Positions 5,390-39,591 of a DNA stretch of 64,000 nucleotides are shown piece after piece. Both the position numbers and the translations under genes were made by a program. Source of the stretch: an uncultured bacterium. Lineage in GTDB: Bacteria > Patescibacteriota > Minisyncoccia > Phycocordibacterales > CAIRYW01. Numbering within the stretch: the first letter of the stretch is position 1; every line of letters begins with the position of its first letter. Location: contig CAIRYW010000004.1 in NCBI GenBank assembly GCA_903882905.1, forward strand, positions 49,117-113,116, written 5' to 3'. The notes under the pieces were generated by a model. The model did no database searches. It worked only from the letters and a program-made list of their open reading frames with translations, and was not told where the DNA came from.

Positions 5390-5989
5390 TCATGGCGTCC
5401 GAATGTAGGCGGAACAGAGTTTATTTATAATTTTATTTATTGAAACTGCTCCTTCCCTAACGATTTCAAAAGTTCTCGTATTGTTTACATATCTAACAAT
5501 TGTCGAGGAAACAGCACTTTTTCGTTTACCTGATACATAAAAGTCTAATTTACTACCAAAGTATTTTTTTGCTTCTGTAATATTTTTTGCAGGAATTTTG
5601 CCTTCAGGATTTGCACTTGGGGCTACCAATGGTCCTGTTTTTTTAAGAATATTCACAATAAATTTGTTTTTCGGCATTCTAAAACATAGACTATTTGTAC
5701 CTCTGTGAAGATATTCAAATTTTTTGTTTTTTACCTCAAAAATTATTGAAACTTTATCTGGCCAGATCTTGGTCAGTTCCTTTGTTGGAATATTCTTCAC
5801 ACCAAATTTTTTCAACTCGTTAATGTTTTGAATAAGAACAATTAGTGGTTTATTCTTATTCCTCAGTCGGACTTCATAAATCTTTTCAACAACTTTTTTT
5901 GAAAAGGCACTTCCAACAAGGCCTAAAATTGTGTCTGTAGGAATCACCCCAATTCCCTCTTTTTTAATTATTTCTGTTATCTCATTCAT
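5390..5989 (-). CDS. tsaC: L-threonylcarbamoyladenylate synthase (YrdC/TsaC family)
   Basis: 199 aa. IPTDTILGL and SANPEG motifs of the YrdC/Sua5 fold. Confidence 0.75.
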   Translation of the reverse strand: MNEITEIIKKEGIGVIPTDTILGLVGSAFSKKVVEKIYEVRLRNKNKPLIVLIQNINELKKFGVKNIPTKELTKIWPDKVSIIFEVKNKKFEYLHRGTNSLCFRMPKNKFIVNILKKTGPLVAPSANPEGKIPAKNITEAKKYFGSKLDFYVSGKRKSAVSSTIVRYVNNTRTFEIVREGAVSINKIINKLCSAYIRTP

Positions 5990-8049
5990 TAAATGAGTAT
6001 GATACTAAATAATCCAATTCCAGCAAGGATTGACCCTAAAATCATTAACGTGTTGTGGGTATTAAAACTAAATCCGGAACCTGACACTCCTGCAAGCTGG
6101 TCTGGATTCACATTTTGATTAGTCTGTGTTGTCGATGATATTGCTGGTAAATTATTTCCAATTATTCTTTTTACTTCTAAAGTTTTTGAACTTGAAACAG
6201 AGTCAGTCGTAGTTGATGTAGTAGTTGCTTGCCCTGTCAAATCTTCCGCAGGGAGATTTGTTAGGGTCGCAAAAACTAGAGTAGTACTCGCGTTAGTGGA
6301 CAGTAAACTACCTCCAGATAATTCTGCCTGTTTTGGCACATTGTGAAGAATTTCTGACCATGTTTCGAGCATAGTTGCAGGAATTGCCCATTCTGTTGCC
6401 CAGACTCTTGTATCTAAGGCATCAGTTGTTGTACCAATGCTCCCATCTACCATTTGATTTGTTGCTAAGTAGTCAAATGGATTGTTCCCGTTATTCATTA
6501 ATTGTTTTGGGTCAGAATTTCCAGCTATTAAACCTTGAATTGCCCAACTAGTTGAGTCTGGGTTGCCAAATCCTCCGTCACTACTTTGTGCTGATTTCAA
6601 AAAATTAAGTCCTCTGGTTATAGCAGAACTAGATCCTGGAACATTTGGGACAAGTGATAGTGCTTGAATTGCTGCACCTGTCAGATCAATGCTATCCCAT
6701 TCTCCGCTTGATGATTGTTTAGAAATTATAAACTGTGCTGATTTTTGAATTATATTGTCAGATGAACTATAACCAGAGCTTAATAAAGTAACAATTCCAA
6801 ATATATCATCATTAAACTGCGATTGATTTCCTATTTGGTCTCCGTCAAATGAATCTGTAATTTTTTTAATGTAATTTTCATTTCCATCTGTGTGAGGATT
6901 TAATCCAAGGGCGAGCATAGCCATTGCCCTTCTTTCATAGTCAGTGGTAGCTGTTCCGTCTAGTGAATCAGATTTGATATATTGTTTCAGTTTCTCTTTT
7001 GTATTTACATGTCCCGAAGATGCTCCATACGCTATTGCTGCCCAGTCAGTGTACAAATCACTTCCAAAGCCTCCGTCACTATTCTGGTGTGAATCCAAAA
7101 ACGAAAGCATTGATTCTAAATTTGGAGTTTGATGTGTTTGAGCGGATCCTCCACCCGAACTGCCTGTTTGATTACTTGGTGTAGAAGTTGCCGTTGTTGT
7201 TCCATCTATTATTTCAAAAGGATAGGTTGGGTAGTAATAATCTTCCTCTAAACCAAAATTATATGTACCTGTAGCAGATAAATCGAAAATAGAATTTCCT
7301 GTGCTATCTGATGTTGATGTAGCGATCACTATTGGTGACCATGGATTATTTGGATCAGGTTGCGTAGCTCCTACTACAACATTTGATAGCGGACTCCATA
7401 AATTATTTTGATAGTCGTAGCTTACCGCACTAATTGTAAAAGGAACACTAGAATTTCCTGGTTCATTAGGAGTAATTAGTTTTCGTGGTTGACCAAAATA
7501 TAGAGTTAAACTATCGCCTGTGTGTAAAATTTTTTGATCAATTGCATCCCATGGAGATTCTCCATTTACAACATAATTCCACGTACAAGAGTTTGTTGTA
7601 GTTCCAGTTGTGATATTTATACAATTAACAAAATAACCATTTGAATAGTGTTTTAGATCAGAAATATTAAAATTATCGCTTTGGGCATCAACTCCTTCCA
7701 ATACAGCAAGTGCACTTTGTGCAGAAATTTGCCCTGTAACACCCAAATCATCAGTGACTGATATTTGTGCGTTAGAATCGGTCGTAACATCTACGGGTCC
7801 ATTAAAAAGAATTTGGTCATTATATCTAATGAAAACATTTACGGTTAATGTTGAAGTTGAGGTACTGTTTGTTGGACTTGTTGTGGTTGCAGTTGAGGAG
7901 GAATTTTGATCAGGTGCAGTTGTTGTAGCTTGAGTTGAAGTTGAACTTGCATCGGTTGATGAAGCGTCATCTGCAGATACTTTTAAAATTGGTAAAAGTA
8001 AAAAAGCAAAAGCGACAACTAATAAATATTTTTTAATAATTTTTCTCAT
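5989..8049 (-). CDS. cell-surface protein with prenyltransferase/terpene-cyclase-like alpha/alpha-toroid repeats and a C-terminal TM anchor
   Basis: 686 aa. N-terminal signal peptide. Ser/Thr-rich linkers. Repeated QxxDGGFG-type motifs (NSDGGFGSDLYTDWAAIAY, SSDGGFGNPDSTSWAIQGL, SSGEWDSIDLTGAAIQAL). C-terminal hydrophobic segment LMILGSILAGIGLFSIILI. Confidence 0.6.
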   Translation of the reverse strand: MRKIIKKYLLVVAFAFLLLPILKVSADDASSTDASSTSTQATTTAPDQNSSSTATTTSPTNSTSTSTLTVNVFIRYNDQILFNGPVDVTTDSNAQISVTDDLGVTGQISAQSALAVLEGVDAQSDNFNISDLKHYSNGYFVNCINITTGTTTNSCTWNYVVNGESPWDAIDQKILHTGDSLTLYFGQPRKLITPNEPGNSSVPFTISAVSYDYQNNLWSPLSNVVVGATQPDPNNPWSPIVIATSTSDSTGNSIFDLSATGTYNFGLEEDYYYPTYPFEIIDGTTTATSTPSNQTGSSGGGSAQTHQTPNLESMLSFLDSHQNSDGGFGSDLYTDWAAIAYGASSGHVNTKEKLKQYIKSDSLDGTATTDYERRAMAMLALGLNPHTDGNENYIKKITDSFDGDQIGNQSQFNDDIFGIVTLLSSGYSSSDNIIQKSAQFIISKQSSSGEWDSIDLTGAAIQALSLVPNVPGSSSAITRGLNFLKSAQSSDGGFGNPDSTSWAIQGLIAGNSDPKQLMNNGNNPFDYLATNQMVDGSIGTTTDALDTRVWATEWAIPATMLETWSEILHNVPKQAELSGGSLLSTNASTTLVFATLTNLPAEDLTGQATTTSTTTDSVSSSKTLEVKRIIGNNLPAISSTTQTNQNVNPDQLAGVSGSGFSFNTHNTLMILGSILAGIGLFSIILI

Positions 8050-8530
8050 AAACCCAATTTATTAAATCCCCATTCTGTAATTTACATGAAGAGACACCGA
8101 CAGTTGCCTTTTTTCCATTTATATAATAAATCCACGAATATCCATTTCCTTCTTTTAATCCATTGATTTCATCCACAAAAAAACCTAGGCCAGAAAAATT
8201 TTCACCTTTAATATCCACTATTTTTTTTAGAACAGCATCTTCTATAACTTTTTCCAAAGTATCACCAGGAGCAAAATTAAGGCTAATTGTTTTTCCGCTT
8301 ACTAAAAAATTTATTGAAGTCTGGCTTGGAGTTTGTTTAGTACTTGTCGCTAGATAAATTTCATTAATACTACTCGTTCCTACTTGAGTAGTATTCTCGA
8401 TAGGTGAAGTAATTATTGGTGCTACAGTTTTTAGGCTTGTATAAAAAAAACCGAAACATAGGAAAATAATCCCTAGTACCAGACATATAAAACCCAATAT
8501 TTTCTTTTTGTTTATTTTTTTACAATTCAT
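8033..8530 (-). CDS. membrane-anchored DUF4430-like (transcobalamin-like beta-domain) protein
   Basis: ORF-track start 8548 is a GTG inside a terminator hairpin. The ATG at 8530 (MNCKKINKKKILGFICLVLG...) is the more likely start. N-terminal TM. C-terminal GYSWIYYINGKKATVGVSSCKLQNGDLINWVY resembles the DUF4430 fold. Confidence 0.5.
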   Translation of the reverse strand: MNCKKINKKKILGFICLVLGIIFLCFGFFYTSLKTVAPIITSPIENTTQVGTSSINEIYLATSTKQTPSQTSINFLVSGKTISLNFAPGDTLEKVIEDAVLKKIVDIKGENFSGLGFFVDEINGLKEGNGYSWIYYINGKKATVGVSSCKLQNGDLINWVYEKNY

Positions 8531-8721
8531 AACGAAAAAACTGCTCACCAGAGCAGTTTTTTCAAATAAAATTTAATTTGGAATTTCCTGCTCGGGTTTG
8601 ATATAAAATTTCCTAAAGATCGGACTACTTAAGAAAAACTTAAGATTACCGTTGCGGCACAGCGCTGGAATTTAACCAGACTTCCATAGAAAAAATTTCT
8701 TAATTTAAATGAACTCAAAAA

Positions 8722-9264
8722 TTATACTCTTACTTTCGCTTCTTGCAAATTTCCATCAAATTCCAAAACATTAACCTCAGACTTGGCAAGAATCTTGGTC
8801 AAAAACGGTGACACCGTTAGGGCAAAAATGGCTCCTCCCATCAGATGCAGTGCTGTAAAAGGAATTTGTCCCATGAGAGCAATATAGAATGAACCACCTC
8901 CAATCAAGGGACCTAAAACAACTCCTGTTGCCACATCATAGAAAATGATTCCAATACTTGAGCATAATACGTAGTTTGTTAATGAGAATTTTTTATTTGT
9001 GAAGTAAATACCTGACCAAATACCTAGTATTCCATAGCAAATTCCGGCTGTCAGCGTATACATTCCAATTCCGGCTGTAAAGAAGTCATATATTAGAATA
9101 CTTAGGAATGCAAAACCAAAAAGTTCTAACTTCCCTGCTTTTTTAGAAAAAGGCATCATTACCGACATTAAGGGCTCTACGTTTGGTGGGCGAAAAGGAA
9201 TAAATCTATAGAGCATAGCTCCAATAAATCCAAGCACCATTAAAATTCTTTGATTTGTCTTCAT
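8722..9264 (-). CDS. integral membrane protein, possible ECF-type S-component (substrate unknown; cobalamin suspected from context)
   Basis: 180 aa with about 5-6 predicted TM segments and glycine-rich helices. Immediately downstream of nrdJ on the same strand (24-nt gap). Confidence 0.4.
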   Translation of the reverse strand: MKTNQRILMVLGFIGAMLYRFIPFRPPNVEPLMSVMMPFSKKAGKLELFGFAFLSILIYDFFTAGIGMYTLTAGICYGILGIWSGIYFTNKKFSLTNYVLCSSIGIIFYDVATGVVLGPLIGGGSFYIALMGQIPFTALHLMGGAIFALTVSPFLTKILAKSEVNVLEFDGNLQEAKVRV

Positions 9265-9287
9265 TTTGTAGGAAGAATATTTTGCCT

Positions 9288-11639
9288 TTATTTTACAATC
9301 GAGGGAACTTCATCAATTTCACAAACTCCAGACACACATGCCAATTCTCTTTTTGCTTCAGTTTCATCCTTCTTCTCATAAATCATAATCTTTGAGTAAT
9401 CAATATGAGCTAGTTTTTTTGAAAGCTCTAAATATTTTTTCTCGTCAATTTTTTCATAGGGCGCTAATTGATAGACATGGTTTTCTCTTGGTAAGAATGA
9501 TAGACCTCCAACAATATCCCAATTTTCATAAATCCAGTTGGCTACCTCAATCCATTCATTTTCACCAATGGAAATTGTTACTGATGGATTGTGTTCTGTA
9601 TATTTTTCCTTAACTACTTTCCAATGCCTAAGTTGATCAAGAGCAGTTAGATCATCTTTAAATATTGATCCCGCTGGAGCTTTCACTGGAAATTCTAGGA
9701 CGTATGTTGTCGCATTGTCTTGAGTCTGTCCAACTTCTGGAAAATATGGAACTCCTTGATCTTTTAACATTTTGAAAAGTGAATCTGTTGCAGCAATTCT
9801 GATTCTTCGAATATAGTATTTTGAATAACGAGGATGCATTCCTGAAGAAAAATCAAAAGTTTGAGATGAGTTTCCATCTGGCTTCACGCAAGTAATTGCT
9901 GTTGATTCATTAACTCCAAATCTTTTTGCGTAAATTTTATTTATTTTGATAGTTTCTTTTTTCAAAAGTTCAAGAATTTCTGGTTTTCTAACAATATCAT
10001 TATCCCATTGTCCTGCGAGTCCTATTCCAAGCAGTCTTTCTCTTTCACAATGCTCCTTCCAACCTTTTGATAGGTATGGAAAATTTGTAAGAGTTGATTG
10101 ATATGTTCCAATAATTGTTGCAACTCTAATTTTTTTGAGTAGAGATTCTTTTGTATCATTTGCTCGTGCAACAACGTTTGTAAGATTACAAAACTGTTTT
10201 GATTGCAAAATAATTTCTCCACAAGGATTTGTTCCGATTGAACCGATAATAGTTGTGCCTGTGGCATCAAAATATCCTTCAGTTTCTCTTAGGACTCTAA
10301 CTCTTCTTTCAGGTAATGTTTTTGCAAGTGATCCTCTATTGAAGATTCCTCTTTCTCCTGTACCAGATTTCATAAGAGCAATCCATTCATCCATAAATTC
10401 AGCAGCTGTTGGCTTTTGAATATAAACTGCAGAGTTGTTTGAGAGCATTCTTTGTGGTTCTGTATTGTAAAATGCACCCTTTTTTGCGTCTCTAATGTCA
10501 TTATCGTCCAAATCTGAGAGCGAAATAAGGGCACTTCTTCTAACCCCTCCAGAAACTACACACTCGCCAATCATACAAATGATGTCATGAACATCTATAT
10601 TTCGAAGTCTTTTTCCTTGGCGAGCAATCATTTTTTCTCGAGTAAAGGCCAAAAGCTTTCTTATTGGATCAGGACCTGATGATTTTCCTCCCATAGTTTT
10701 TAGTCTTGCTCCTGCTGGGCGCAATTGTGAAAAATCGAAATCAACATCCTTACCACTTGCCCAAACATTCATTCCAAAAGTTAATGCATCTGCCCAGCCT
10801 TCTTTACTGTCAGGAATTACATGTGTTGGAATTTTAGCCCCTGTTTGTTGAAAAATTTGTGGAAATTTTTGTACGTTTTGACTCTCAACAGAAAATCCTG
10901 CACCAGTTCCACACATTAGTATGTACATAATTTCTGCTAGATCTTGAAAACATTCTGGTGCAACAAACGAACAGTTGTATGCACAGACATTTGTTTTACC
11001 TGCAGCAGTTCCAGCAAATTGCAAAAGTCTCATTGATGGAAGTGCATCTTGTTTCAAAATTGTTTCTCTAACATCTGCGTACTCACTTTCTTTTAATTTT
11101 TTTCCAAGATTTTCTTTCATGAATGCCATGTAGCGATCTACAGTTTCAATCCAAGTTTCTCTTCTCTGTTCTGCATCAATCCATTTAGAATAAGTTCGGT
11201 AGTACATAAATTCTCCAAGTTCAGTACGAAAATATTTTTTACTATTAGCAACAAGTTTTTTTACCTTGTCAGGAATTTGCATTCCTCTTTCTCGAAGCTT
11301 TGATCGCTTATCTCGATAAAGAATATATGCCTTCGATGTCTTTACATATTCACCAAGAATAAGTTCCTTCTCAACACTATCTTGGATTCCTTCAACTGTT
11401 GGGACAAAGTTTGTATATTTTTTAGAAATTCTGACAATATCTGCAAAAACCTTATTTGCCACCATTTCTGCTTCCTTAAGTGAGCCTTCACCAGATGCAA
11501 TCATTGCTTTGTACACAGCTGTAACAATTTTTTGAAAATCAAAAGGTACAGTTGAGCCATCTCTCTTTTGAACTTTTGGCGAAAAAACTTTTTCTTCGAC
11601 TTTTTTTGCGGCGATCTTTTTACTTTTTGAGGAACCCAT
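9288..11639 (-). CDS. nrdJ: class II (adenosylcobalamin-dependent) ribonucleoside-triphosphate/diphosphate reductase
   Basis: 783 aa. RNR active-site finger NPCGEIIL. CNLTNVV... C-terminal Cys pair. Monomeric class II architecture and length. Confidence 0.85.
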   Translation of the reverse strand: MGSSKSKKIAAKKVEEKVFSPKVQKRDGSTVPFDFQKIVTAVYKAMIASGEGSLKEAEMVANKVFADIVRISKKYTNFVPTVEGIQDSVEKELILGEYVKTSKAYILYRDKRSKLRERGMQIPDKVKKLVANSKKYFRTELGEFMYYRTYSKWIDAEQRRETWIETVDRYMAFMKENLGKKLKESEYADVRETILKQDALPSMRLLQFAGTAAGKTNVCAYNCSFVAPECFQDLAEIMYILMCGTGAGFSVESQNVQKFPQIFQQTGAKIPTHVIPDSKEGWADALTFGMNVWASGKDVDFDFSQLRPAGARLKTMGGKSSGPDPIRKLLAFTREKMIARQGKRLRNIDVHDIICMIGECVVSGGVRRSALISLSDLDDNDIRDAKKGAFYNTEPQRMLSNNSAVYIQKPTAAEFMDEWIALMKSGTGERGIFNRGSLAKTLPERRVRVLRETEGYFDATGTTIIGSIGTNPCGEIILQSKQFCNLTNVVARANDTKESLLKKIRVATIIGTYQSTLTNFPYLSKGWKEHCERERLLGIGLAGQWDNDIVRKPEILELLKKETIKINKIYAKRFGVNESTAITCVKPDGNSSQTFDFSSGMHPRYSKYYIRRIRIAATDSLFKMLKDQGVPYFPEVGQTQDNATTYVLEFPVKAPAGSIFKDDLTALDQLRHWKVVKEKYTEHNPSVTISIGENEWIEVANWIYENWDIVGGLSFLPRENHVYQLAPYEKIDEKKYLELSKKLAHIDYSKIMIYEKKDETEAKRELACVSGVCEIDEVPSIVK

Positions 11640-12095: not shown

Positions 12096-13208
12096 TTATT
12101 TTAATGCAACAGGTAAATTTTCCCACATTTTTGGATCCTCCAAGCCATCAACTTTAAACAAAGCGACTCCACCTAGGCCAAGATTTTTTGCTAAAGTAAA
12201 TCTTGCTTGAATTGTACTTGCATCCTCAAAAACAACATAGTGATTTTTTCCTTTTGCTGTATAGGTAAAATATTTTTCTCCACCTATTGTATCTTTTATA
12301 GTTGCGTTATAAAGTTTAGAAACAGTTAGAGCTCTAATGTAGGATTTGGCTCCAAATCTTTCTACATTTCGCACTCCTTTTTTTGTTGTGTAGGTAAAGT
12401 CATATCCATATGAAGGGATTCCTAAAATAATTTTTTTAGGATCAATTCTAGTTACAGCGTAAGCAGAAATATTTTTTACGTAATCAAGTGATGCATTTGA
12501 TACGGAATTGTATAGAGGTGTAGTTGTTGAAAATTTATTACTTTGATAGACAGCAGAATATTCATCGTAGGCCATGATGCGAACTTGATCACAGTAATTA
12601 TTCATCACGCTCCAGTCATTAGCCCAAGGAAATTTTTTATTTAATGGGACACTTAGGAGCGCTACATCATACATTCTTGCTTCCACGGTACAAACTAGAA
12701 TTTTGTTTTTTGAACGTAATTTATTTGAAAGCTCAGTAATAAAAGTTGAAAAAATATCTTTGTCGGTATCATGTTTTCCTTCGTAATCAATTTCAACTCC
12801 ATCAAAATTATTTGCTGTGACCATCGAAACAACTTCATCCTCATGGGCTGTTCTTAGGGTTGAATCAGAAAAAACATTATGCATTTGATTTTTTGCAGTC
12901 CAAAGAATAGAAGGAACTATCTTTATGTTTTGGCTTCTCGCACTACTAAAAACAGTATTCCAGTCCCCTTTTGAAATTTTTAGCTTATCTACTAAGTGCG
13001 CATTGCTATCTACTTCATAAGCAAAAGGCGTAATTATGCTAAATTTGCTTAAATTTGCCTGTAAAGTAGGTATTCCAAGGTCTTGAGACCAATATGGAAT
13101 CCAGGAAGCTACACTAAAGGTGTTTAAAGTAGAGGCAAAGGCAAAAATTGGAAATAAAAACCCAATTAAAGTGATTTGCAGGATGTTCAAGGAAGTTTTC
13201 ATGTTCAC
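12096..13208 (-). CDS. secreted glycoside hydrolase family 18-like protein
   Basis: 370 aa. Signal peptide. FDGVEIDYEG matches the GH18 DxxDxDxE catalytic region, with the second Asp replaced by Glu and the Trp by Tyr. Confidence 0.55.
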   Translation of the reverse strand: MNMKTSLNILQITLIGFLFPIFAFASTLNTFSVASWIPYWSQDLGIPTLQANLSKFSIITPFAYEVDSNAHLVDKLKISKGDWNTVFSSARSQNIKIVPSILWTAKNQMHNVFSDSTLRTAHEDEVVSMVTANNFDGVEIDYEGKHDTDKDIFSTFITELSNKLRSKNKILVCTVEARMYDVALLSVPLNKKFPWANDWSVMNNYCDQVRIMAYDEYSAVYQSNKFSTTTPLYNSVSNASLDYVKNISAYAVTRIDPKKIILGIPSYGYDFTYTTKKGVRNVERFGAKSYIRALTVSKLYNATIKDTIGGEKYFTYTAKGKNHYVVFEDASTIQARFTLAKNLGLGGVALFKVDGLEDPKMWENLPVALK

Positions 13209-13235
13209 ATTATAACATGCTGATATTTTTAGGTT

Positions 13236-14087
13236 CTATTCAGTTAGATCTAGGTAATCATCAATCATAGCTGAGACTGTTGCTTGAGCTCCAGCTCCGG
13301 GTCCATAAGCCTTCTTTTCACCATTTATGTACATTACGTTATTAACTCCTGTCGGCAACCAATTGCTATTATTATCCTCAGTAAAGCCAGTTTGAATTTT
13401 ATCTTTTGTAATTTTAACTACACACCTTTTACCTTCCTTGAAGCCAACTTTTTCAATATCATTTTCTGTTATAGTTCTATCAAAAATATCTGTGTGATTT
13501 GAAATAATTATTGTTTTGTAAATTGCGTCTTTTATCTCAATATTAATAATTTCATCAAAAGTGTTTGCTCCAGGTTCTGAAAATTTATTCTCAAAAATTT
13601 CTTTCACAATTTGCTCTTTTGCTTTTCCAGACTTTAATTCATCTCCAATATAGTTAAGTGTGCCGTTTACTACAGCATTAATTTCTGAAATATTTTCTGA
13701 TTTGTATTTAGAAATTTCTTTTAACATCATTGTTCCTCCACCAACTGATGCAGTATATTTAAAAATATTTTTGTATTCCTTTAATTTGTCCCAATGATTT
13801 GCAATAGAGGCTTTCTCACAAGTAATGACTGGTTTTCCTTTTTCTAAAAAGGCTAACTCATACTCAAGTGCGATATTACCTTTTCCTTTTGTCGGAATAC
13901 ATATAAAAGCTAAATCAATCTCATCAATAAAATCTCTCCAATCTTTTTGCTCCGCAATTTTATTTTGTGAAATATCAAATACACCATCTGATCGAACAAT
14001 ACATTTAATGTTGGCGTTTTCTTGACCAAGTCTTTTTATTAGTGTTGAACCAATATTTCCAGCTCCGAATATAATTACATTATTCAT
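13236..14087 (-). CDS. hom: homoserine dehydrogenase (short form without ACT domain)
   Basis: 283 aa. Rossmann GAGNIGS. ITCEKAS (VTANKA-like). VGGGTMML. INAVVNGTLNYIGDEL (GIxNGTxNYIL motif). C-terminal GPGAGAQATVSAMIDD. Confidence 0.65.
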   Translation of the reverse strand: MNNVIIFGAGNIGSTLIKRLGQENANIKCIVRSDGVFDISQNKIAEQKDWRDFIDEIDLAFICIPTKGKGNIALEYELAFLEKGKPVITCEKASIANHWDKLKEYKNIFKYTASVGGGTMMLKEISKYKSENISEINAVVNGTLNYIGDELKSGKAKEQIVKEIFENKFSEPGANTFDEIINIEIKDAIYKTIIISNHTDIFDRTITENDIEKVGFKEGKRCVVKITKDKIQTGFTEDNNSNWLPTGVNNVMYINGEKKAYGPGAGAQATVSAMIDDYLDLTE

Positions 14088-14150
14088 TTTGTAATTCTAA
14101 CAAAAAACACCACGAGAGTAACCTCTCGTGGTGTTTTTGGATTATTTTAA

Positions 14151-16145
14151 TTAAATTATAAACGGAATGATTAGGAGAGCTACAATGTTTAGAATTTTAA
14201 TCATTGGGTTGATTGCAGGTCCTGCTGTGTCCTTATAAGGATCTCCAACTGTATCTCCAGTAACTGCTGCTTTGTGAGCATCACTTCCTTTTCCGCCATG
14301 GTGTCCTTCTTCAATAAGTTTCTTTGCGTTATCCCATGCTCCACCACCCGATGTCATTGAGATTGCAACGAACAATCCTGTAACAATACTTCCAACAAGA
14401 AGTCCTCCAAGTGCAACTGGTCCGAATACAAATCCAACAAAAATCGGAGCGATAACAGGAATAAGTGCAGGAATTATCATTTCTTTAATTGCAGCTGAAG
14501 TAACAATATCTACTGCGCGTGCGTAATCTGGTTTTGCGCTTCCGTCCATAATACCTTTGATTTCTCTAAATTGTCTTCGAACTTCGTCAACAACTTTTCC
14601 TGCGGCTTTTCCTACAGCTTCCATTGAAAGTGCTGCAAAATAATATGGAAGTAATCCTCCTAGGAATAATCCGATAATTACTTTTGGATCACCGAGTGAA
14701 AATTGAACTAGATGTAATCCCTTTTGTGCTTCTGTTGTGTAAGATGCAAAAAGCACAAGTGCTGCAAGTCCGGCTGAACAAATCGCATATCCTTTTGTAA
14801 CTGCTTTTGTTGTGTTTCCAACAGCATCAAGAGGATCTGTAATATCACGAACTTCTTTTGGAAGCTCTGCCATTTCCGCAATTCCTCCAGCGTTATCTGT
14901 AATTGGTCCATATGCATCGATAGCAACAATAATTCCTGCCATTGAAAGCATACTCATTGCTGCGATTGCGATTCCGTAAAGGTTAGCGAATGAATAACTT
15001 GTAAGAATTCCCAAAACAATCACAAGTAAAGGAAGTGCTGTAGATTTCATTGAGATCGCCAAGCCTTGAATAATATTTGTTCCGTGTCCAGAAAGTGAAG
15101 CGTTAGCAATTGATTTTACTGGAGCATATTTCGTTGATGTGTAATATTCAGTAATGATAACAATCAATGCTGTAACAACTAGTCCAACAATAAGTGAACC
15201 AAATAATTGTCCAAAAGAATAAATTCCATTATCACTCATTAATATTTTTGTAACAGGATAAAATGCAATTGCAGATAGAACTCCTGCTGCAATTAATCCT
15301 TTGTACAATGCACCCATGATATCTTTACTTTTTCCAAGTTTTACAAACCAAGTTCCCACAATTGAACAAATAACAGCAACTCCACCAAGAACTAATGGGT
15401 ATAGAAGTGCATTTTGTGAACCGTGGAAAATTGAAGCGCCTAAAATCATAACTGCAATTGTTGTAACAGCATAAGTTTCAAAAAGGTCAGCAGCCATTCC
15501 TGCGCAATCTCCAACGTTATCTCCAACGTTATCAGCAATTACTCCAGGATTTCTTGGGTCGTCTTCTGGGATTCCTGCCTCAACTTTTCCTACAAGATCA
15601 GTTCCAACATCAGCAGCTTTTGTAAAAATTCCACCGCCCAATCGAGCAAACACTGAAATCAAACTGGCACCAAATGCAAGACCGATAAGTGCGTTTACAT
15701 CCTGAAAAACTGCATAAAATCCTGAAACACCAAGAAGTGCCAATCCTACAACTAGAAGTCCTGTAACTGAACCTCCATCAAAAGCAATTTTAAGTGCTTG
15801 AGCTAAACCTTCTCTTGCCGCTTCAGCTGTTCTCACATTTGCTCTAACTGAAACGTTCATTCCAATGTATCCTGCAAGAGCAGAAAATAGAGCTCCGATG
15901 GCAAAACCAAGAGCTGTAACGAATCCTAAGGAAACCCATAGGATGACAAACAAAACAACAGCAATAACTCCAATTGTCTTGTACTGTCTGTTTAAATAAG
16001 CCTTAGCACCCTGTTGAATTGCCAATGCAATTTCTTGCATACGAGCATTTCCAGCTGGTTTTTTTAAAATAAGCTTGCTTATAAAAAGTCCATATGCGAT
16101 TGCTAATACAGCGGCGACAATGGAAAAAGTGATATATGCGTTCAT
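14151..16145 (-). CDS. hppA: membrane-bound proton-translocating inorganic pyrophosphatase
   Basis: 664 aa, polytopic. Signature [25 protein letters not shown] and the Dxxx[15 protein letters not shown] motifs. Confidence 0.95.
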
Positions 16146-26147: not shown

Positions 26148-26220
26148 GGGCCCATAGCTCATCTGGTAGAGCGCCTCATTTGCACTGAGGAGGTGAGCGG
26201 TTCGAGTCCGCTTGGGTCCA
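26148..26220 (+). tRNA. tRNA-Ala (anticodon UGC)
   Basis: GGGCCCAtaGCTCAtcTGGtaGAGCgCCTCAtTTGCAcTGAGGaggtgaGCGGTTCGAgTCCGCtTGGGTCCa. 7-bp acceptor stem with the G3:U70 Ala identity pair. D- and T-arms present. Anticodon loop tTTGCAc. No encoded CCA. Confidence 0.9.
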
Positions 26221-27709
26221 CAATAGTAGACTGAGACGCCGAAATGGCGTCTTTTGTCTTGAAAAGACAACACATTTCAGTGGTTCCAAAAAAATTATTC
26301 TGAAAGACTAAACCTGAGGGGAATTGGAACCATTGCAACTTAACTTTTACTCCGATTTTTGCTTTTCTCCATATTTCACTTGGGTTTTTAAGATATTTTT
26401 CAAGAAAATCTATAGCCTCCTCATAATTTGTTTCTGTGTTAGGCATAGAAGCAAGTGAAGCATTTGCCTCAAATAATTCGTTCTCAATCATAGCAAGTTG
26501 TTGTTTAAGGACATTGTCTGAAATAACTCCATCTAAATTTTTCTTGATAATCCCAGACTGCTTATTCGTGAGTTCACTTATATGTTTCTTTAATCTCTCG
26601 GCGTCTTTTCTTTGTTCAAATGTTGCCTTCACGAGATTTTCCTTTACCAATTCTTTTAGTCTTTTGAGTTTTACATCATCAAAGCAAAATTTATTTACGT
26701 AAGTCATAAAAACTTTTTCAAACTCATCACGGTTATGATTTGAGTTATTGCCACCAAAACGGTAAAAGGGATATTTTTGTTTACGCCCACTAGACCAACT
26801 TCCTGTAAGTTTTTTTCCGTTATCGTTTATAACAAACCTACGAAGAGGAAAATCTGGATGGTCTGTAATATGTTGTGAATTTTTTTTGGCTTTACCCTTA
26901 AGAACACGTTGGACTTGATAAAAAATATCTTCAGGAATGATGGGTTCAAATGTTCCTTTATGTCTTTCTCCAAATTTAACAATCCATCCTGTAAAGACTT
27001 CATTTGTTAATAACTTGTAAAAATATGCTTTGCAAAGTGGTTTACCTTTTCTATTACACAAGCCCCTTTTAATCATCATCCTTCTCACTTCTTCTGTTGG
27101 ATACGTGTTAGAAGCCATAAGAGAAAAAGTTTCTTTTATTATCGGAGCCATTATTTCGTTCGGTGCAATTGTTGACCTGCCACCAACTTTTACATTGTCG
27201 TAACCAACTGGAGCCATCCAAACATAACGACCATCCCGCATTGCGTCTTTCATTCCTCCTGCACATCTCTCTGAACGAATATCATTATCAAATTGTGCAA
27301 TGTTTGACATTGTATTCTCCATAAACCTACCTACAGGCGTATTTTCAAAATGTTCAGATGTAGATTTAATTTCTACTCCGTATCTCTTTAGTAAAAGTCG
27401 GAGTTGACTATAGTCATCTGTGTTTCTTGATAGACGGTCCAATTTATAAATTATAACTGCCTTAACTGCGTTTTTTTTATCTGCACAGTAAGTCAAAAGT
27501 TTCTGAAGCTCTGTGCGGTCCGTTGTCTTCGCACTCTCACCTTGTTCAATATAAATCTGTGTAATTTCGTATTCATTCTTTAAGGCGTAATCCTTACAGA
27601 TTTTTTCTTGTGTGCTTAAACTATTTCCTTCTTCAACCTGCTCCTTGCTTGATACTCGGCAGTAAGCCACCGCCTTCTTTTTTTGACTCGTGTAATTTAT
27701 TTCGTTCAT
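26159..27709 (-). CDS. large serine recombinase (resolvase/invertase catalytic domain plus recombinase and zinc-ribbon domains)
   Basis: 516 aa. N-terminal AVAYCRVSSKEQ catalytic-Ser region. Recombinase-domain and coiled-coil C-terminal features. The 3' end of the ORF reads antisense across the 3' half of tRNA-Ala (tail ...VDPSGLEPLTSSVQMRRSTR is tRNA complement), so the true stop may be earlier and the gene abuts or overlaps the tRNA. Confidence 0.85.
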   Translation of the reverse strand: MNEINYTSQKKKAVAYCRVSSKEQVEEGNSLSTQEKICKDYALKNEYEITQIYIEQGESAKTTDRTELQKLLTYCADKKNAVKAVIIYKLDRLSRNTDDYSQLRLLLKRYGVEIKSTSEHFENTPVGRFMENTMSNIAQFDNDIRSERCAGGMKDAMRDGRYVWMAPVGYDNVKVGGRSTIAPNEIMAPIIKETFSLMASNTYPTEEVRRMMIKRGLCNRKGKPLCKAYFYKLLTNEVFTGWIVKFGERHKGTFEPIIPEDIFYQVQRVLKGKAKKNSQHITDHPDFPLRRFVINDNGKKLTGSWSSGRKQKYPFYRFGGNNSNHNRDEFEKVFMTYVNKFCFDDVKLKRLKELVKENLVKATFEQRKDAERLKKHISELTNKQSGIIKKNLDGVISDNVLKQQLAMIENELFEANASLASMPNTETNYEEAIDFLEKYLKNPSEIWRKAKIGVKVKLQWFQFPSGLVFQNNFFGTTEMCCLFKTKDAISASQSTIVDPSGLEPLTSSVQMRRSTR

Positions 27710-27908
27710 ATTCTTTTTGGTCCAAAAATGCCTCTACTAGAATACTTGCGAAGTAATCTAGAGCAACATCCTCTGGGACATTATTAGAGCTATTAAAACC
27801 AAAAGAGGGACAACGAAGGGACTCTTTGTTGCTACACATCAAGTCTCGTTGCCCCTCTTTGGGTACAAAATTATAAGCCCCTACTTTACTGATGTGTAGC
27901 CTACTCAT
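27633..27908 (-). CDS. questionable small ORF
   Basis: 91-aa ORF overlapping the 5' end of the serine recombinase by about 76 nt. No motif. Confidence 0.2.
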   Translation of the reverse strand: MSRLHISKVGAYNFVPKEGQRDLMCSNKESLRCPSFGFNSSNNVPEDVALDYFASILVEAFLDQKEYERNKLHESKKEGGGLLPSIKQGAG

Positions 27909-27912
27909 AATA

Positions 27913-29031
27913 TCATTTTCCCTTCATTTTTTGAAGGAGATTAGACAACTCTTTTTCACTAAATTGGTAGACAATTTCTCTACTTTTTCCTTCAAAATCT
28001 ATGTTTCTTATGATTTCAATTTGCCTTTCCTCCTCAATATGTCCATAGCCGTAAGAGCCAAAGGTTGTTCCAACATCTTCGTGACCTAAATTTTGGCTGA
28101 TAGCCTTTTTCTGTTCTTCCGTTAGGGGTAGTTTTGATATTGCTTTAATGAGTAAGTGCCTAAAAGTGTGTGGATGATAATATTTAACTCCAGCCTGTAC
28201 AAATCTTTTTTCAAATATTTTTCTAACTGAAGTTGGACTTTTCCAAAAAGTTGGTTCAACTTCCTGTGTGTTGTAGTAACCTAAATTTTCCTTACCACAC
28301 TCAACTTTGGTTTTAGGAAAAATAGGGTCATTCGGACCGAATTTCTTCTGTTCTAATAAATAATCAAACCACTTAATAAAATAGTCTAGCGGTTCTTTGT
28401 ATGAAAAAGGTATTAGAGTGGAGATTATTCTCTTTGAGAATTTCGTTTTTACACCTAATTTTGGGTCTTGGTCTACAGTTAGCTTTTCTCTATCAAAGCA
28501 TTTCATTGGAAGAGATGTGATTGCAGAAATTCTAGCTCCAGTTAAAAAGGTTAGAGAAATTAAAGCTTTATCCCTCATTTCAATTTCAGTATTACCACCG
28601 ATATTTTCAATTACTAGCCTTATTTCATCTAAGGTTGGCGATAATTTGCTTTTTGGTTGAGTTGCAATCTTAATTTCTTGCCTTGATAGATTTAAATAAT
28701 CAATATCTGTTTGATTGATTTTTGACTTGTATCCAGATTGTCTAGATAACCACTCAAAGAAAGTCTTTAAATGTCTTATAATGTCGTAACAATAGGATAT
28801 GCTGATATTTCCTTCAGTGTGAACTTTTTTCTTGCACTTAAGCCAATTTTTGAAATTCTCAGCTTTTATTTTAGTAAAACCCGCTAAGTCACCTTTATTA
28901 GTAAAATCCTCCCAAAGATATACTGCGTCTTCAAAGCATTCAATTGTTGTTTTAGAGAATCCTTTGGAGTTGGCTAAGTAGTCATAGAATTTTCTTTTTA
29001 CCACTTCATTTTTCTGGGTTATTGATGACAT
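27913..29031 (-). CDS. tyrosine-type site-specific recombinase/integrase
   Basis: 372 aa. N-terminal SAM-like domain. C-terminal catalytic HPHTFRHLLI ... LGHEDVGTTFGSYGY (R-H-R-Y constellation with terminal Tyr). Confidence 0.85.
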   Translation of the reverse strand: MSSITQKNEVVKRKFYDYLANSKGFSKTTIECFEDAVYLWEDFTNKGDLAGFTKIKAENFKNWLKCKKKVHTEGNISISYCYDIIRHLKTFFEWLSRQSGYKSKINQTDIDYLNLSRQEIKIATQPKSKLSPTLDEIRLVIENIGGNTEIEMRDKALISLTFLTGARISAITSLPMKCFDREKLTVDQDPKLGVKTKFSKRIISTLIPFSYKEPLDYFIKWFDYLLEQKKFGPNDPIFPKTKVECGKENLGYYNTQEVEPTFWKSPTSVRKIFEKRFVQAGVKYYHPHTFRHLLIKAISKLPLTEEQKKAISQNLGHEDVGTTFGSYGYGHIEEERQIEIIRNIDFEGKSREIVYQFSEKELSNLLQKMKGK

Positions 29032-29093
29032 ATTTTTTTAGTATTTATTATTGGTTTCTAATGGGACATTTAAGAGGTGTATCAAGTAATCAT

Positions 29094-29498
29094 TTAATCC
29101 TTTTGGCATATCTTTAAAAATCTGTTTATTTTTGTTCCACATTGCTCGCATAATCCTATTTTCTTTTGTTGCTCTATTTTATTTTTCCCTATCCTTTTTC
29201 CAGTTTTGACGATATTTTCACTACCGTTCAAGGCCTCAACAACCTTCTTGCATTTGAAGCAGTAAAATTGATTTTTAGCCAAAGGCTTTTTTTTAGCTGA
29301 CCGTTTTTGGTTGATAAATATTTTTAAATCTTCGCCCATAATCAATAGTGGACTGGAATCCTCATCAACTACTTTTAGGTTCTCCTTTTTAATCCATCTG
29401 GAACAAGTTTTTCTGTCAACGTTCAAAAGTGTTGCTATATCCTTGATTGAATAGCTACTCCTAGATTTAATTAAGTGGATGTTGTATTTATTGGCCAT
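29094..29498 (-). CDS. HTH (excisionase/MerR-like) DNA-binding protein with C-terminal CxxC...CxxC zinc ribbon
   Basis: 134 aa. YSIKDIATLLNVDRKTCSRWIKK helix-turn-helix. CFKCKK...CEQCG zinc-ribbon. Confidence 0.5.
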   Translation of the reverse strand: MANKYNIHLIKSRSSYSIKDIATLLNVDRKTCSRWIKKENLKVVDEDSSPLLIMGEDLKIFINQKRSAKKKPLAKNQFYCFKCKKVVEALNGSENIVKTGKRIGKNKIEQQKKIGLCEQCGTKINRFLKICQKD

Positions 29499-29666
29499 TA
29501 AGAAGCCTACTATTTACTTGGCAGGCTCTTGAACGCCGATATGGCACCAGCCAAGTAAGCAATAGGTTTACTCTTTGGCGTTCAAGATTTTGCCAAACAA
29601 AAAAAGGCCTACTATCAGCCTACGCTTTTATAAAAATTCAAATACCTACATTAAAAAAATAGGTAT

Positions 29667-30746: not shown

Positions 30747-30752
30747 ATCTTG

Positions 30753-31676: not shown

Positions 31677-31681
31677 AAGTT

Positions 31682-33316: not shown

Positions 33317-33456
33317 TTTAATTATTTTTAAGCTAAAACTTACAATAAATAATACAGTACAATTAACATTTTGTCAAAGATAATAAGTGGAAAACATACA
33401 TTTAAGTATTTATAAACTAAGTAGTATTATTACTTAGTAATTTCTCTCACCAGTTA

Positions 33457-33560
33457 TTAATTAAATAAATATTTATGTTTAACTTTTTTCACAATCTAAG
33501 TGTCGGAATAATTCCAGTCTTTATTGCTTTTACTGGTATTTTTCATTCAAATAATAACAA
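33457..33560 (+). repeat. conserved 5' module (upstream box plus leader-peptide coding region), copy 1 of 3
   Basis: agttattaattaaataaat upstream box, then atgtttaacttttttcacaatctaagtgtcggaat...gcttttactgg...tttcattc. About 85% nucleotide identity to the copy at 38678..38780. The same upstream box precedes the copy at 34275. Confidence 0.6.
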
Positions 33561-34269: not shown

Positions 34270-34274
34270 AAGTA

Positions 34275-34380
34275 TTAGTTATTAATTAAATAAATCATAT
34301 GTTCAGTTTTTTTCACAATTTAGGAATAGCATTTGTGTCGGCTTTCGTTGCTTTTACAGGGGCTTTGCATTCCCAACCTT
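34275..34380 (+). repeat. conserved 5' module, copy 2 of 3
   Basis: agttattaattaaataaat box immediately upstream of atgttcagtttttttcacaattta...gcttttacagggg...ttgcattc. Confidence 0.55.
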
Positions 34381-35339: not shown

Positions 35340-35514
35340 TAAAATATTTAAAATAAAAAACCCACTAGAAATCGGAAGCTAGTGGGTTTTTATATTGTAT
35401 TATGAAAATTTCAATTTGTTTACCAAGTATTAACAACACTGAATTTATTGATGGAATTAGATATAAGCAACGTTCTAACTTCGTCTAGTACTCCCAGCAG
35501 TAGGCCAAATACAC

Positions 35515-37266: not shown

Positions 37267-37428
37267 ACGTATATTATATCTCGTTTTTGCTTGTACTGAT
37301 TTCTTCTTTCCACATAGCAAAAAATATCTCAGCTAATTGGTCTTGCTTCTCTCTGAGTTCAAGAATTTGTTCTTCGCTTAATCGTTCAGCCGATGAACCG
37401 AGAGCCGTCTTGTAGTCTTCAAGGCTCA

Positions 37429-37677: not shown

Positions 37678-37726
37678 AAGTCTATTACGTGAGGACTTGC
37701 AAGTAGACTACATTTAAAAAGAACTT

Positions 37727-39520: not shown

Positions 39521-39591
39521 ATTCTATGGGACAAGAAACGCTTTTAGCTAATTAGGGATGCTTTATTGCAACCAGTAAGATAGAAAGAAAT

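Follow-up and report, generated by a model that had tools for sequence, protein, structure and literature searches.

A 64-kb stretch of Patescibacteria DNA, referred to here as the window, probably carries a two-unit locus for the salvage of cobamides (vitamin B12), which would combine riboswitch-controlled surface capture, import through a CbrT-like membrane protein and use of the vitamin by the ribonucleotide reductase NrdJ. Patescibacteria (CPR) have very small genomes from which most cofactor biosynthesis is missing, and the ways in which they acquire cofactors are poorly understood. On the minus strand, the locus reads as follows: nrdJ, a CbrT-like S-component gene, a promoter-like site, a riboswitch, a terminator, a gene for a solo DUF4430/SLBB protein and the gene for a 686-aa surface protein. 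All the genes that an earlier note on this DNA had listed were recovered, with the same strand and boundaries, and the riboswitch was absent from its description. Profiles of NrdJ, DUF4430, the toroid and the S-component gave no further match within the window.

Gene content of the locus

The nrdJ gene (9288..11639, minus strand) encodes a class II, adenosylcobalamin-dependent ribonucleotide reductase (RNR) of the monomeric RTPR type with an N-terminal ATP-cone. Pfam matches comprised the ATP-cone, RNR_Alpha, the insertion domain of B12-dependent RNRs (RNR-II_ins_dom, PF21995; 28.2 bits vs 27) and the barrel, Ribonuc_red_lgC. The score against TIGR02505 (RTPR) was 272 bits, which is under the model cutoff of 340. 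An alignment with NrdJ of L. helveticus (26% identity, E 9e-54) brought both the GTNPCGEI segment and the C-terminal CVSGVC, a CxxxxC redox pair, into register. With the B12-dependent insertion domain, the active-site cysteine and the C-terminal cysteine pair all present, the class II assignment made earlier holds.

Next in order is a 180-aa membrane protein (8722..9264, minus strand), a CbrT-like ECF-type S-component that we predict to be a cobamide-specific membrane subunit. Taken alone, this protein had no Pfam or NCBIfam match. Its AF2 model (pLDDT 90.5) displayed the six-helix S-component fold, and the top 17 Foldseek matches in the PDB were all S-components (FolT, RibU, PanT, BioY, ThiT; TMq 0.51-0.68), with BtuM at rank 36 (TM 0.62). 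The family profile had a single match in the PDB, the 182-aa 'Membrane protein' chain of 6FNP (ECF-CbrT; E 0.011), and hhalign aligned this family with that of CbrT at 98% probability (E 3e-13, 156 columns, 18% identity), with the motifs R..PNV(E/Q)P and F.xxH..GN common to both. Fold and profile homology agree with the earlier suggestion of a possible ECF S-component. Judging from its sequence profile, the protein is a distant homologue of CbrT, and cobamide transport is its predicted role. CbrT itself has been shown experimentally to transport B12 (PMC5997447). A motif screen of the window revealed no EcfA, EcfA' or EcfT and located the ABC signature motif in a UvrA-like ORF only; PduO was likewise not found in the window.

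The solo SLBB/DUF4430 protein (8033..8530, minus strand) is CbrS-like, as indicated by Pfam, BLASTP and synteny. It matched PF14478 with an E-value of 8.8e-14 (52.2 bits vs a gathering score of 23.8) and the DUF4430 protein at the CbrS position of L. helveticus with an E-value of 3e-7 (BLASTP). Together with a hydrophobic N-terminal anchor, recognized by sequence inspection only, the Pfam match confirms a membrane-anchored DUF4430 protein at this position. Translation likely starts at the ATG at 8530 and not at the GTG at 8548: the latter falls within the terminator, and the homologue in a related locus (L001) begins with MNYKKINKKK at the equivalent ATG.

The 686-aa protein (5989..8049, minus strand) displayed a composite architecture. 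From the N-terminus it consists of a signal peptide, an S/T-rich linker, an SLBB/DUF4430 domain (aa 67-187; 7489..7851), an Ig-like beta-sandwich (aa 189-282; 7204..7485), a second linker, an (alpha/alpha)6 toroid of QxxDGGFG-type repeats (aa 311-567; 6349..7119), an S/T-rich stalk and a C-terminal hydrophobic anchor (aa 662-686; 5992..6066, ...HNTLMILGSILAGIGLFSIILI), all on the minus strand; the signal peptide and the C-terminal transmembrane helix were read from the sequence only. The SLBB domain corresponds to the beta-rich N-domain of the AF2 model and matched PF14478 over aa 125-186 (E 2.7e-5, 25.0 bits vs a gathering score of 23.8), and a match to SQHop_cyclase_C had an E-value of 4e-8. 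The Ig-like domain is an all-beta segment (model residues 130-222) that all 81 loci conserve ('mid' HMM). Residues 60-575 were modelled by AF2 with a pLDDT of 93.4 and a pTM of 0.58; at this pTM the interdomain geometry is unreliable, and therefore a B12 sandwich is not visible in the model. Against PF01122 (Cobalamin_bind) the window protein remained below match level; among 70 members of the toroid family, 35 matched Cobalamin_bind and 45 matched DUF4430.

HMM searches thus placed DUF4430 in both surface proteins and SQHop_cyclase_C in the larger one. The latter match bears out the toroid surface protein of the earlier note, which had overlooked the DUF4430 domain of the same protein. That note had also proposed a split transcobalamin module. 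Both folds appear to be present, but the module is not strictly split because the 686-aa protein carries the SLBB domain as well as the toroid, and the small protein is a second SLBB beside it.

Two other identities were considered for the toroid and rejected. Class II terpene cyclases carry a DxDD motif that is missing here: the segment aligned to DVDDTA of squalene-hopene cyclase (1GSZ) reads SIDLTG, and the family consensus at this segment is S-V-D-x-T-A. The thioester (TED) domain of alpha-2-macroglobulin and complement was discarded as there is no CGEQ and the toroid has no cysteine at all; the only two cysteines of the 686-aa protein are both in its SLBB domain.

A cobalamin riboswitch and two probable transcription units

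The two surface protein genes are preceded by a cobalamin riboswitch aptamer of the AdoCbl type (8582..8718, minus strand). Its match to RF01482, at 8712-8582, was marginal (51.7 bits vs a gathering score of 50; E 1.4e-6 over the whole window), and a custom model derived from related loci (R1) gave 110.6 bits (E 3e-25). Among the relatives, 10 of the 14 loci scanned reached the gathering score on RF01482, RF01689 or RF00174, and the relatives were divided between the AdoCbl, AdoCbl-II and Cobalamin models. The alignment of these elements (A3) has the invariant core GGAA..GGU..A.UCC..GUGCCGC.ACGGU..AGUCCG. Across 67 sequences, 96.3% of the cells in the aptamer helices are paired, compared to about 40% in slid controls, a difference favoured by the model-fitted alignment; compensatory double changes occur in 15 of the 21 aptamer pairs. 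The conserved 3′ element of the aptamer, CCCGAGCAGGAA, spans positions 8596-8585.

A candidate sigma-70-like promoter, TTGCAA-16-TATAAT (8721..8749, minus strand; score 10/12), overlaps the S-component gene at its 3′ end, including the stop codon, and is placed for transcription to start at the riboswitch. This is the top-scoring site of the region; the number of sigma-70-like sites overall shows no excess over chance. Many related loci have TTGACA/TTTGCA-N17-TATAxT at the equivalent position ahead of the riboswitch.

The expression platform is an intrinsic terminator (8534..8563, minus strand) with a U-tract and a 13-bp stem (-17.7 kcal/mol, z -6.4), to which an antiterminator fold (-10.4 kcal/mol, z -3.2) is the alternative. 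The 5′ arm of the terminator, CUGCUC (8556-8551), is complementary to GAGCAG (8593-8588) within the 3′ element of the aptamer. Nearly all related loci share this complementarity, as well as a terminator and U-tract that follow a conserved CCCGAGCAGGA element. The hairpin had been described as bidirectional, and its stem is real. Nevertheless, it is the terminator of the riboswitch, and its symmetry in the two directions serves no evident purpose, since there is no free plus-strand ORF nearby: between 3,562 and 16,203, every plus-strand ORF of at least 60 aa overlaps a longer minus-strand gene.

The single RNR operon previously proposed is probably not correct, because the sigma-70-like promoter, the riboswitch and the terminator appear to start a second, B12-repressible unit. 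Both nrdJ and the S-component gene lie upstream of the riboswitch, and hence outside the unit that it controls. These features support direct cobalamin riboswitch control of the DUF4430 and toroid genes, with ligand binding predicted from the conserved RNA.

We postulate that the two units work together as follows. In the first, which has no riboswitch, NrdJ would consume B12, and the CbrT-like S-component would take the vitamin across the membrane. The second would start at the promoter-like site over the end of the S-component gene and open with the riboswitch. When cobalamin is high inside the cell, the aptamer would sequester its 3′ element, so that the terminator (8563-8534) folds and ends transcription. 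Under cobalamin shortage, GAGCAG would pair with the 5′ arm of the terminator, and transcription would read into the two surface protein genes. The solo SLBB protein and the SLBB-Ig-toroid protein would then contribute both of the folds between which transcobalamin and intrinsic factor hold B12; they would be high-affinity extracellular binders of cobamides and would deliver these to the S-component. Four elements of this scheme are inferred: that the surface proteins bind cobamides, that they pass them to the S-component, that the switch is of the OFF type, and how transport is energised.

Conservation of the locus and alternative readings

A protein search returned more than 300 homologues of the 686-aa protein, and species-representative genomes, when scanned, yielded 317 confirmed loci. 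The source names of the homologues are Patescibacteria-group lineages, unclassified 'bacterium' and one Candidatus Kapabacteria. Synteny was assessed in the best 80 related loci, nearly all of which are from Patescibacteria-group genomes. In 73 of the 77 informative loci a solo DUF4430 gene is found immediately ahead of the toroid gene, and one riboswitch with a terminator lies before the pair in 66 of 77. Each of these 66 loci has a single riboswitch, whose next gene downstream is either the small DUF4430 gene or the toroid gene; it was undetected in 11 loci, and in none of the 80 was one found before nrdJ or the S-component gene. Both nrdJ and the S-component gene occur upstream in 30 of 62 informative loci, and in all 30 loci with the S-component it is accompanied by nrdJ. 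Furthermore, 16 loci encode a PduO adenosyltransferase (E 3e-44) at a position between nrdJ and the riboswitch, and nine loci have a DUF6580 S-component-like gene within the riboswitch unit. The pair therefore recurs near B12-dependent genes in related genomes. The earlier idea of a B12-capture device linked to the S-component and the RNR gains from the riboswitch, the CbrT homology, the Cobalamin_bind matches in half of the toroid family (35/70) and this synteny; its split and one-operon parts need revision.

This pattern also bears on what the surface proteins bind. Instead of complete cobamides, their ligand might be another tetrapyrrole or cofactor, such as heme or incomplete corrinoids: heme has been modelled into a pair of alpha and beta transcobalamin-like proteins of L. 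sakei (bioRxiv 10.1101/864751), and cobinamide is also carried by CbrT (PMC5997447). We consider this improbable, as a cobalamin-clan riboswitch controls the unit in 66 loci, the pair is linked to nrdJ, PduO and CbrT-like genes, and no heme-related genes are among the annotated recurrent neighbour families.

Salvage of cobamides also accounts better for the conserved parts of the proteins than would an episymbiont's B12-regulated adhesin or host-contact structure, or a competitive B12 sequesterer that does not feed the transporter. The membrane tethering of both proteins and a surface-protein-like architecture, with the Ig-like domain and the adhesin-type domains Big_2, HYR and Flg_new_2 in homologues, would suit such a role. 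However, the conserved core is the SLBB domain plus the toroid, whereas the adhesin-like inserts vary, and the S-component-like DUF6580 gene inside the riboswitch unit of nine loci points to transport, which makes these roles highly improbable. It is equally hard to believe that the 686-aa protein is a toroid enzyme acting on the envelope (a terpene cyclase, prenyltransferase or glycoside hydrolase) whose link to B12 is regulatory only, given that DxDD is replaced, that a toroid without cysteine can hold neither the zinc ligand of prenyltransferases nor a thioester, that the protein is secreted and tethered by a stalk, and that its toroid is fused to and paired with SLBB domains, the only characterised homologues of which bind B12 (PMC1796856).

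Returning to cobamide salvage, a more elaborate version of it can be formulated, which we regard as unlikely. The solo SLBB would cap the toroid to form a heterodimeric, tethered 'bacterial transcobalamin', the distal SLBB of the 686-aa protein would make the first capture, and the S-component would work without an ECF module. If this heterodimer and relay existed, the system might be the main route by which many ultra-small, presumably B12-auxotrophic bacteria obtain cobamides from hosts or neighbours, and a living representative of the prokaryotic stock behind the animal B12 carriers. A relay through the distal SLBB would resemble the succession of haptocorrin, intrinsic factor and transcobalamin.

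These findings have implications for the understanding of cofactor acquisition in Patescibacteria. They suggest a lineage-wide solution for B12, in which a riboswitch-repressed surface pair, whose two proteins correspond by homology to the halves of the human B12 carriers, would be combined with a CbrT-like importer and a B12-dependent enzyme of DNA precursor synthesis. The link to a riboswitch makes the B12 hypothesis for the SLBB plus toroid class specific and directly testable. In addition, the compact soluble ectodomains, with their confident models, lend themselves to binding and structural studies of the bacterial origin that has been proposed for the animal carriers.

Comparison with known systems

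In transcobalamin, a toroid and a beta-grasp domain sandwich B12 (PMC1796856), and TCN proteins have DUF4430 as their C-terminal domain (PMC4350170). The order of toroid first and beta domain last, which is that of animal transcobalamin, intrinsic factor and haptocorrin, is reversed in the 686-aa protein, where the SLBB domain comes first and the toroid last. Unlike in the animal carriers, the two folds of this protein are set apart by an Ig-like domain and a flexible linker, another SLBB protein is encoded separately, and both proteins are membrane tethered. A reversed domain order was already noted for bacterial versions (PMC1796856). Burroughs, Balaji, Iyer and Aravind (2007; PMC1796856) predicted secreted bacterial proteins with SLBB and toroid domains to be extracellular B12 binders. 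In that class the SLBB domain is fused N- or C-terminally to the toroid, sometimes with Ig-fold domains, and the window protein fits it exactly. There, the clade was regarded as an innovation of Gram-positive bacteria, with sporadic transfers to archaea, whereas in the present survey, which covered relatives of the 686-aa protein only, the best 80 loci are nearly all from the Patescibacteria group; riboswitches are not mentioned in the text of that paper. No bacterial transcobalamin-like protein with experimental characterisation came up in searches of the open literature, and the only functional claim that they returned for such proteins names heme as the ligand (bioRxiv 10.1101/864751). That claim concerns the ECF-like operon lsa1836-1840 of L. 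sakei, which has separate alpha (Lsa1840) and beta (Lsa1839) transcobalamin-like subunits. As in the window, toroid-type and beta-type genes are separate and stand beside an ECF-type transporter. The L. sakei operon, for which its authors argue heme as substrate, includes its own ATPase and T components; in the window, the toroid protein has an SLBB domain as well and the genes are under a cobalamin riboswitch.

Surface capture of B12 is reportedly performed in Bacteroides by the lipoproteins BtuG and BtuH (work of Wexler and colleagues, eLife 2018). These are also surface-exposed, high-affinity binders encoded in riboswitch-controlled uptake loci that hand B12 over to a membrane transporter; they differ in their unrelated, beta-propeller folds, diderm envelope and TonB-dependent partner BtuB.

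The closest parallel is the nrdJ-cbrS-cbrT-pduO cluster of Lactobacillus (Rodionov et al. 2009, as cited in Santos et al. 2018, PMC5997447). At locus L082 of L. helveticus the order is nrdJ, a DUF4430 gene, cbrT and pduO, the product of cbrS being the DUF4430 protein; its gene table has no toroid gene, and the words 'riboswitch' and 'toroid' are both absent from the text of PMC5997447. Common to both clusters are an RTPR-type nrdJ, a small DUF4430 protein and a CbrT-family S-component, as is PduO in 16 of the Patescibacteria loci. In contrast to the Lactobacillus cluster, no ECF module or PduO was seen in the window, its NrdJ has an extra ATP-cone, and its S-component is distant. The concept of B12 capture is therefore not new, as it was preceded by the prediction of Burroughs and colleagues, the nrdJ-cbrS-cbrT-pduO cluster and the L. 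sakei pair. The locus is a previously undescribed variant of the B12-salvage cluster of lactobacilli, to which a large SLBB-Ig-toroid surface protein has been added and in which a riboswitch lies between the capture genes on one side and nrdJ and the S-component gene on the other.

Gene content of the locus

Five close-packed ORFs run along the minus strand of the window from position 11639 down to 5390. The first is nrdJ (11639-9288, minus strand), which encodes a protein of 783 aa with an ATP-cone, an RNR alpha domain, a B12-dependent-RNR insertion domain, and part of the RNR barrel. Its best NCBIfam model was RTPR, the adenosylcobalamin-dependent triphosphate reductase (272 bits, under the cutoff of 340). 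The catalytic body shares 26% identity with NrdJ of Lactobacillus helveticus (E 9e-54), and the active-site TNPCGEI and C-terminal CxxxxC pair of the two proteins line up. nrdJ is followed by the genes of a polytopic membrane protein of 180 aa (9264-8722, minus strand), whose own sequence had no Pfam or NCBIfam match, of a small DUF4430 protein with a hydrophobic anchor at its N-terminus (8548/8530-8033, minus strand; PF14478, E 8.8e-14), and of a 686-aa protein (8049-5989, minus strand) with a signal peptide, a DUF4430 domain, SQHop_cyclase_C-type repeats, and a terminal hydrophobic helix. The ORF table and Pfam searches confirm the gene inventory of the earlier note, all of whose genes are present.

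The last ORF (5989-5390, minus strand) is the housekeeping gene tsaC/sua5, assigned by Pfam. Its start codon shares one base with the stop codon of the 686-aa gene, and this essential tRNA modification gene therefore looks co-transcribed with the B12-repressed unit. Among related loci, tsaC/sua5 lies directly behind the toroid gene only in L001, the closest relative. Upstream of nrdJ (12096-16145, minus strand) are genes for a secreted GH18-family protein, a homoserine-dehydrogenase-like protein, and an H+-pyrophosphatase, none of them B12-related. Neither PduO nor DUF6580 was found anywhere in the window, and a motif screen of the 64 kb detected no genes for an ECF ATPase or T component.

The identity of the membrane protein emerged from its family. 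As a single sequence it gave no credible match in the PDB. We gathered 57 homologues, a few of which match Pfam ECF-ribofla_trS or DUF6580, and an AlphaFold2 model based on a 52-sequence alignment reached a pLDDT of 90.5. In a Foldseek search of the PDB with this model, the top 17 hits were all ECF S-components (FolT, RibU, PanT, BioY, and ThiT), with BtuM at rank 36. The family profile matched a single PDB sequence, the 182-aa "Membrane protein" chain of 6FNP (E 0.011), almost end to end; 6FNP is the ECF-CbrT vitamin B12 transporter. Homology to CbrT was also found in a profile-profile comparison with a CbrT family gathered from lactobacilli (98% probability, E 3e-13, 156 columns). Both families have R..PNV(E/Q)P after helix 1 and F.xxH..GN in helix 6, and the residues aligned to the AxxxA-type stretch of CbrT helix 1 are V...I in the window protein. 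Profiles and model together identify the membrane protein as a predicted CbrT-like S-component.

Elsewhere in the window, a full-length match to the LOOT RNA model (RF03000) was found at 38512-38638 on the plus strand, with a score of 85.7 bits (gathering score 46.4). The region 26148-40000 is a probable integrated mobile element. It includes a tRNA (26148-26220), two ORFs with serine-recombinase-like N-termini recognized by eye from YCRVS..Q motifs (26159-27709 and 35515-37320), and three paralogous ORFs beginning MF(N/S)FFHNL (33475-34269, 34299-35339, and 38693-39520).

Domains and folds of the surface proteins

The earlier note described a transcobalamin-like module split over two surface proteins. 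A small separate DUF4430 protein does exist, but the 686-aa protein itself combines a DUF4430 domain, unmentioned in that note (aa 125-186, E 2.7e-5), with the toroid, so the module is not simply split. HMM searches returned both expected domain types, PF14478 and SQHop_cyclase_C (E 4e-8 for the repeats of the 686-aa protein). The ectodomain (aa 60-575), modelled on 70 sequences with a pLDDT of 93.4, consists of a beta-rich DUF4430/SLBB domain, an all-beta Ig-like domain, a disordered linker of ~25 residues, and an alpha/alpha toroid; the relative placement of these domains is unreliable because the pTM is 0.58.

Across the 70 members of the toroid family, Pfam matches were obtained to SQHop_cyclase_C in 65, DUF4430 in 45, Cobalamin_bind (PF01122, the alpha domain of eukaryotic carriers) in 35 with a best E of 3e-8, and TED_complement in 21. 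The family profile found squalene-hopene cyclase in the PDB and not transcobalamin, and the 686-aa protein alone gave weak matches to squalene-hopene cyclase repeats only. Since fold searches do not separate B12 carriers from terpene cyclases, we did not use the toroid fold alone as evidence of B12 binding. Enzymatic readings were rejected: the segment opposite the catalytic DVDDTA of squalene-hopene cyclase is SIDLTG, and a thioester or a prenyltransferase-type zinc site is excluded in a toroid that has no cysteine.

Matches of the small DUF4430 protein to polyubiquitin chains in the PDB were discarded as an artefact, their E-values being inflated by a 19-residue match summed over ubiquitin repeats. 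The underlying similarity, detected by phmmer, is between aa 77-95 of the small protein (gene at 8033-8530, minus strand), VSGKTISLNFAPGDTLEKV, and ubiquitin LTGKTITLEVEPSDTIENV; this agrees with SLBB domains having a beta-grasp fold.

The cobalamin riboswitch and its expression platform

An Rfam scan of the whole window returned three RNAs, one of which is an AdoCbl riboswitch aptamer (8712-8582, minus strand) with 51.7 bits (gathering score 50) and an E of 1.4e-6. The aptamer sits exactly in the 173-nt gap that separates the membrane-protein gene from the DUF4430 gene. Twenty nucleotides downstream of the aptamer is a hairpin with a 13-bp stem followed by UUUUUU (8563-8534; -17.7 kcal/mol, z -6.4). 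The earlier note took this for a bidirectional hairpin; it is the riboswitch terminator. CUGCUC in the 5' arm of the terminator (8556-8551) is complementary to GAGCAG (8593-8588), part of the aptamer 3' element CCCGAGCAGGAA, and this alternative pairing is worth -10.4 kcal/mol when the terminator 3' arm is omitted from the fold. As predicted from sequence, the complementarity and the terminator make up a textbook pair of mutually exclusive antiterminator and terminator.

Translation of the DUF4430 gene probably begins at the ATG at 8530, which lies five bases past the U-tract. The GTG at 8548 falls within the terminator stem, and the DUF4430 gene of the closest relative begins at the equivalent ATG (MNYKKINKKK). 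The top-scoring promoter-like site of the region, TTGCAA-16-TATAAT (8749-8721), overlaps the stop codon of the membrane-protein gene; transcription from this candidate promoter would start on the first bases of the riboswitch. The region holds no more promoter-like sites than expected by chance. Many related loci have comparable -35/-10 pairs at the same position before the riboswitch, in upstream sequence that is otherwise unrelated. With a promoter-like site and a riboswitch in mid-cluster, the locus is probably not the single operon previously assumed.

Related loci were collected by using the family alignment to scan a single genome from each species, which confirmed 317 loci. The best 80 were analysed, with genes called by HMMs from our own alignments; nearly all have record titles of the Patescibacteria group. 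In 10 of the 14 loci scanned with Rfam, a cobalamin-clan riboswitch that reached its gathering score immediately preceded the small gene, and the relatives' riboswitches were divided among three Rfam models. A covariance model built from ten of the Rfam-positive loci matched 66 of the 80 loci, or 66 of those 77 that have upstream sequence, a single time each. All matches were on the coding strand and immediately preceded either the small DUF4430 gene or the toroid gene; none stood in front of nrdJ or the S-component gene. Among 67 sequences, 96.3% of the predicted base pairs are formed, and compensatory changes are seen in 15 of the 21 pairs, figures favoured by the fitting of the alignment to the model; slid controls were ~40% paired. 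The element CCCGAGCAGGA comes next in nearly all loci, and a spacer separates it from a hairpin and its U-tract.

Eleven loci had no detectable riboswitch before the DUF4430/toroid pair (L017, L018, L027, L041, L043, L046, L050, L057, L065, L069, and L076), and a permissive search (E<=10) gave nothing convincing in them. In L057 the small gene begins 4 nt past nrdJ, which suggests loss of the switch and fusion of the two units.

Gene neighbourhoods and relation to known salvage systems

In 73 of the 77 loci with room for it, the small DUF4430 gene immediately precedes the SLBB-Ig-toroid gene. Of the 62 loci whose sequence extends at least 4.5 kb upstream, 30 have nrdJ and the S-component gene there in the same orientation, and neither was seen without the other. 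The pairing of surface genes with nrdJ described in the earlier note recurs in these loci. Thirteen loci, including the window, have the order nrdJ, S-component, riboswitch, DUF4430, toroid. Another 13 have S-component, nrdJ, PduO adenosyltransferase (PF01923, E 3e-44), riboswitch, DUF4430, toroid, and 7 more share this layout without PduO or the riboswitch. In nine loci the order is riboswitch, DUF4430, toroid, DUF6580 membrane protein (E 3e-42), and in the remaining loci the riboswitch unit adjoins unrelated genes.

The DUF6580 gene follows the toroid gene within the riboswitch-controlled unit (L039:11977-12534, and L002, L003, L004, L007, L023, L033, L054, and L060), and these nine loci have no upstream nrdJ/S-component pair. 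Some relatives of the window S-component and of CbrT also score against DUF6580. Two loci, L074 and L078, lie on contigs titled Gammaproteobacteria (353 kb and 310 kb) yet carry the riboswitch-DUF4430-toroid unit as in Patescibacteria loci; the label may be a taxonomic error.

Other recurrent flanking genes encode, by Pfam, a family-5 solute-binding protein, RNase J, an MFS transporter, a PilB-type ATPase, an ABC exporter-type protein, and thioredoxin-like and DsbB-like proteins. On these identities they were rejected as parts of a B12 system, save for a possible link to disulfide formation. The thioredoxin-like gene (26 loci) and the DsbB-like gene (23 loci) adjoin the toroid gene (examples are L046:12080-12472 and L037:13641-14192), and two cysteines in the SLBB domain of the large protein are almost invariant, which hints at extracellular disulfide formation.

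Based on these findings, we postulate that nrdJ and the S-component would be expressed whatever the B12 status of the cell. A drop in intracellular cobalamin would let the riboswitch permit transcription into the two surface-protein genes, whose SLBB and toroid domains would capture cobamides extracellularly and pass them to the S-component. The vitamin would then be adenosylated for use by NrdJ, possibly by the PduO that many relatives encode, though the window has none, and a rise in cobalamin would turn the capture genes off again. The B12-scavenging interpretation of the earlier note was right in substance, given the riboswitch, the CbrT homology, and the synteny, and wrong in its details of a simply split module and the hairpin, and probably in that of a single operon.

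The concept is not new. SLBB domains were defined as a superfamily by Burroughs et al. 2007 (PMC1796856), who proposed that the bacterial proteins bind B12 and that animal carriers were acquired from Gram-positive bacteria; in transcobalamin, B12 is sandwiched between a toroid at the N-terminus and a beta-grasp domain at the C-terminus (PMC1796856), and DUF4430 is the C-terminal domain of TCN proteins (PMC4350170). A preprint on L. sakei (bioRxiv 10.1101/864751) reports an ECF-like operon in which distinct genes encode alpha- and beta-type transcobalamin-like proteins, and argues for heme. In the literature we found no description of a Patescibacteria (CPR) version of the system. Nor did we find a riboswitch associated with SLBB/toroid genes, or an experiment testing whether a bacterial DUF4430 protein binds B12. 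The extended cluster is widespread in Patescibacteria-group genomes. To a B12 specialist the locus may be unsurprising, yet it is a well-supported and testable case for bacterial transcobalamin homologues, and it also bears on cofactor acquisition in ultra-small bacteria.

The clearest precedent comes from lactobacilli. Transport of cobalamin and cobinamide has been demonstrated for ECF-CbrT of L. delbrueckii (Santos et al. 2018, PMC5997447), and cbrT belongs to an nrdJ-cbrS-cbrT-pduO cluster whose prediction PMC5997447 credits to Rodionov et al. 2009. The equivalent locus of L. helveticus encodes NrdJ (744 aa), a DUF4430 protein (136 aa), CbrT (174 aa), and Cob_adeno_trans in that order; the 136-aa protein occupies the position of cbrS, so cbrS is a DUF4430 protein. 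Its similarity to the small protein of the window is weak (E 3e-7). The window locus and the Lactobacillus nrdJ/cbrS/cbrT cluster are alike in being salvage clusters of the same type, whereas the window adds a transcobalamin-like toroid protein and a riboswitch in mid-cluster.
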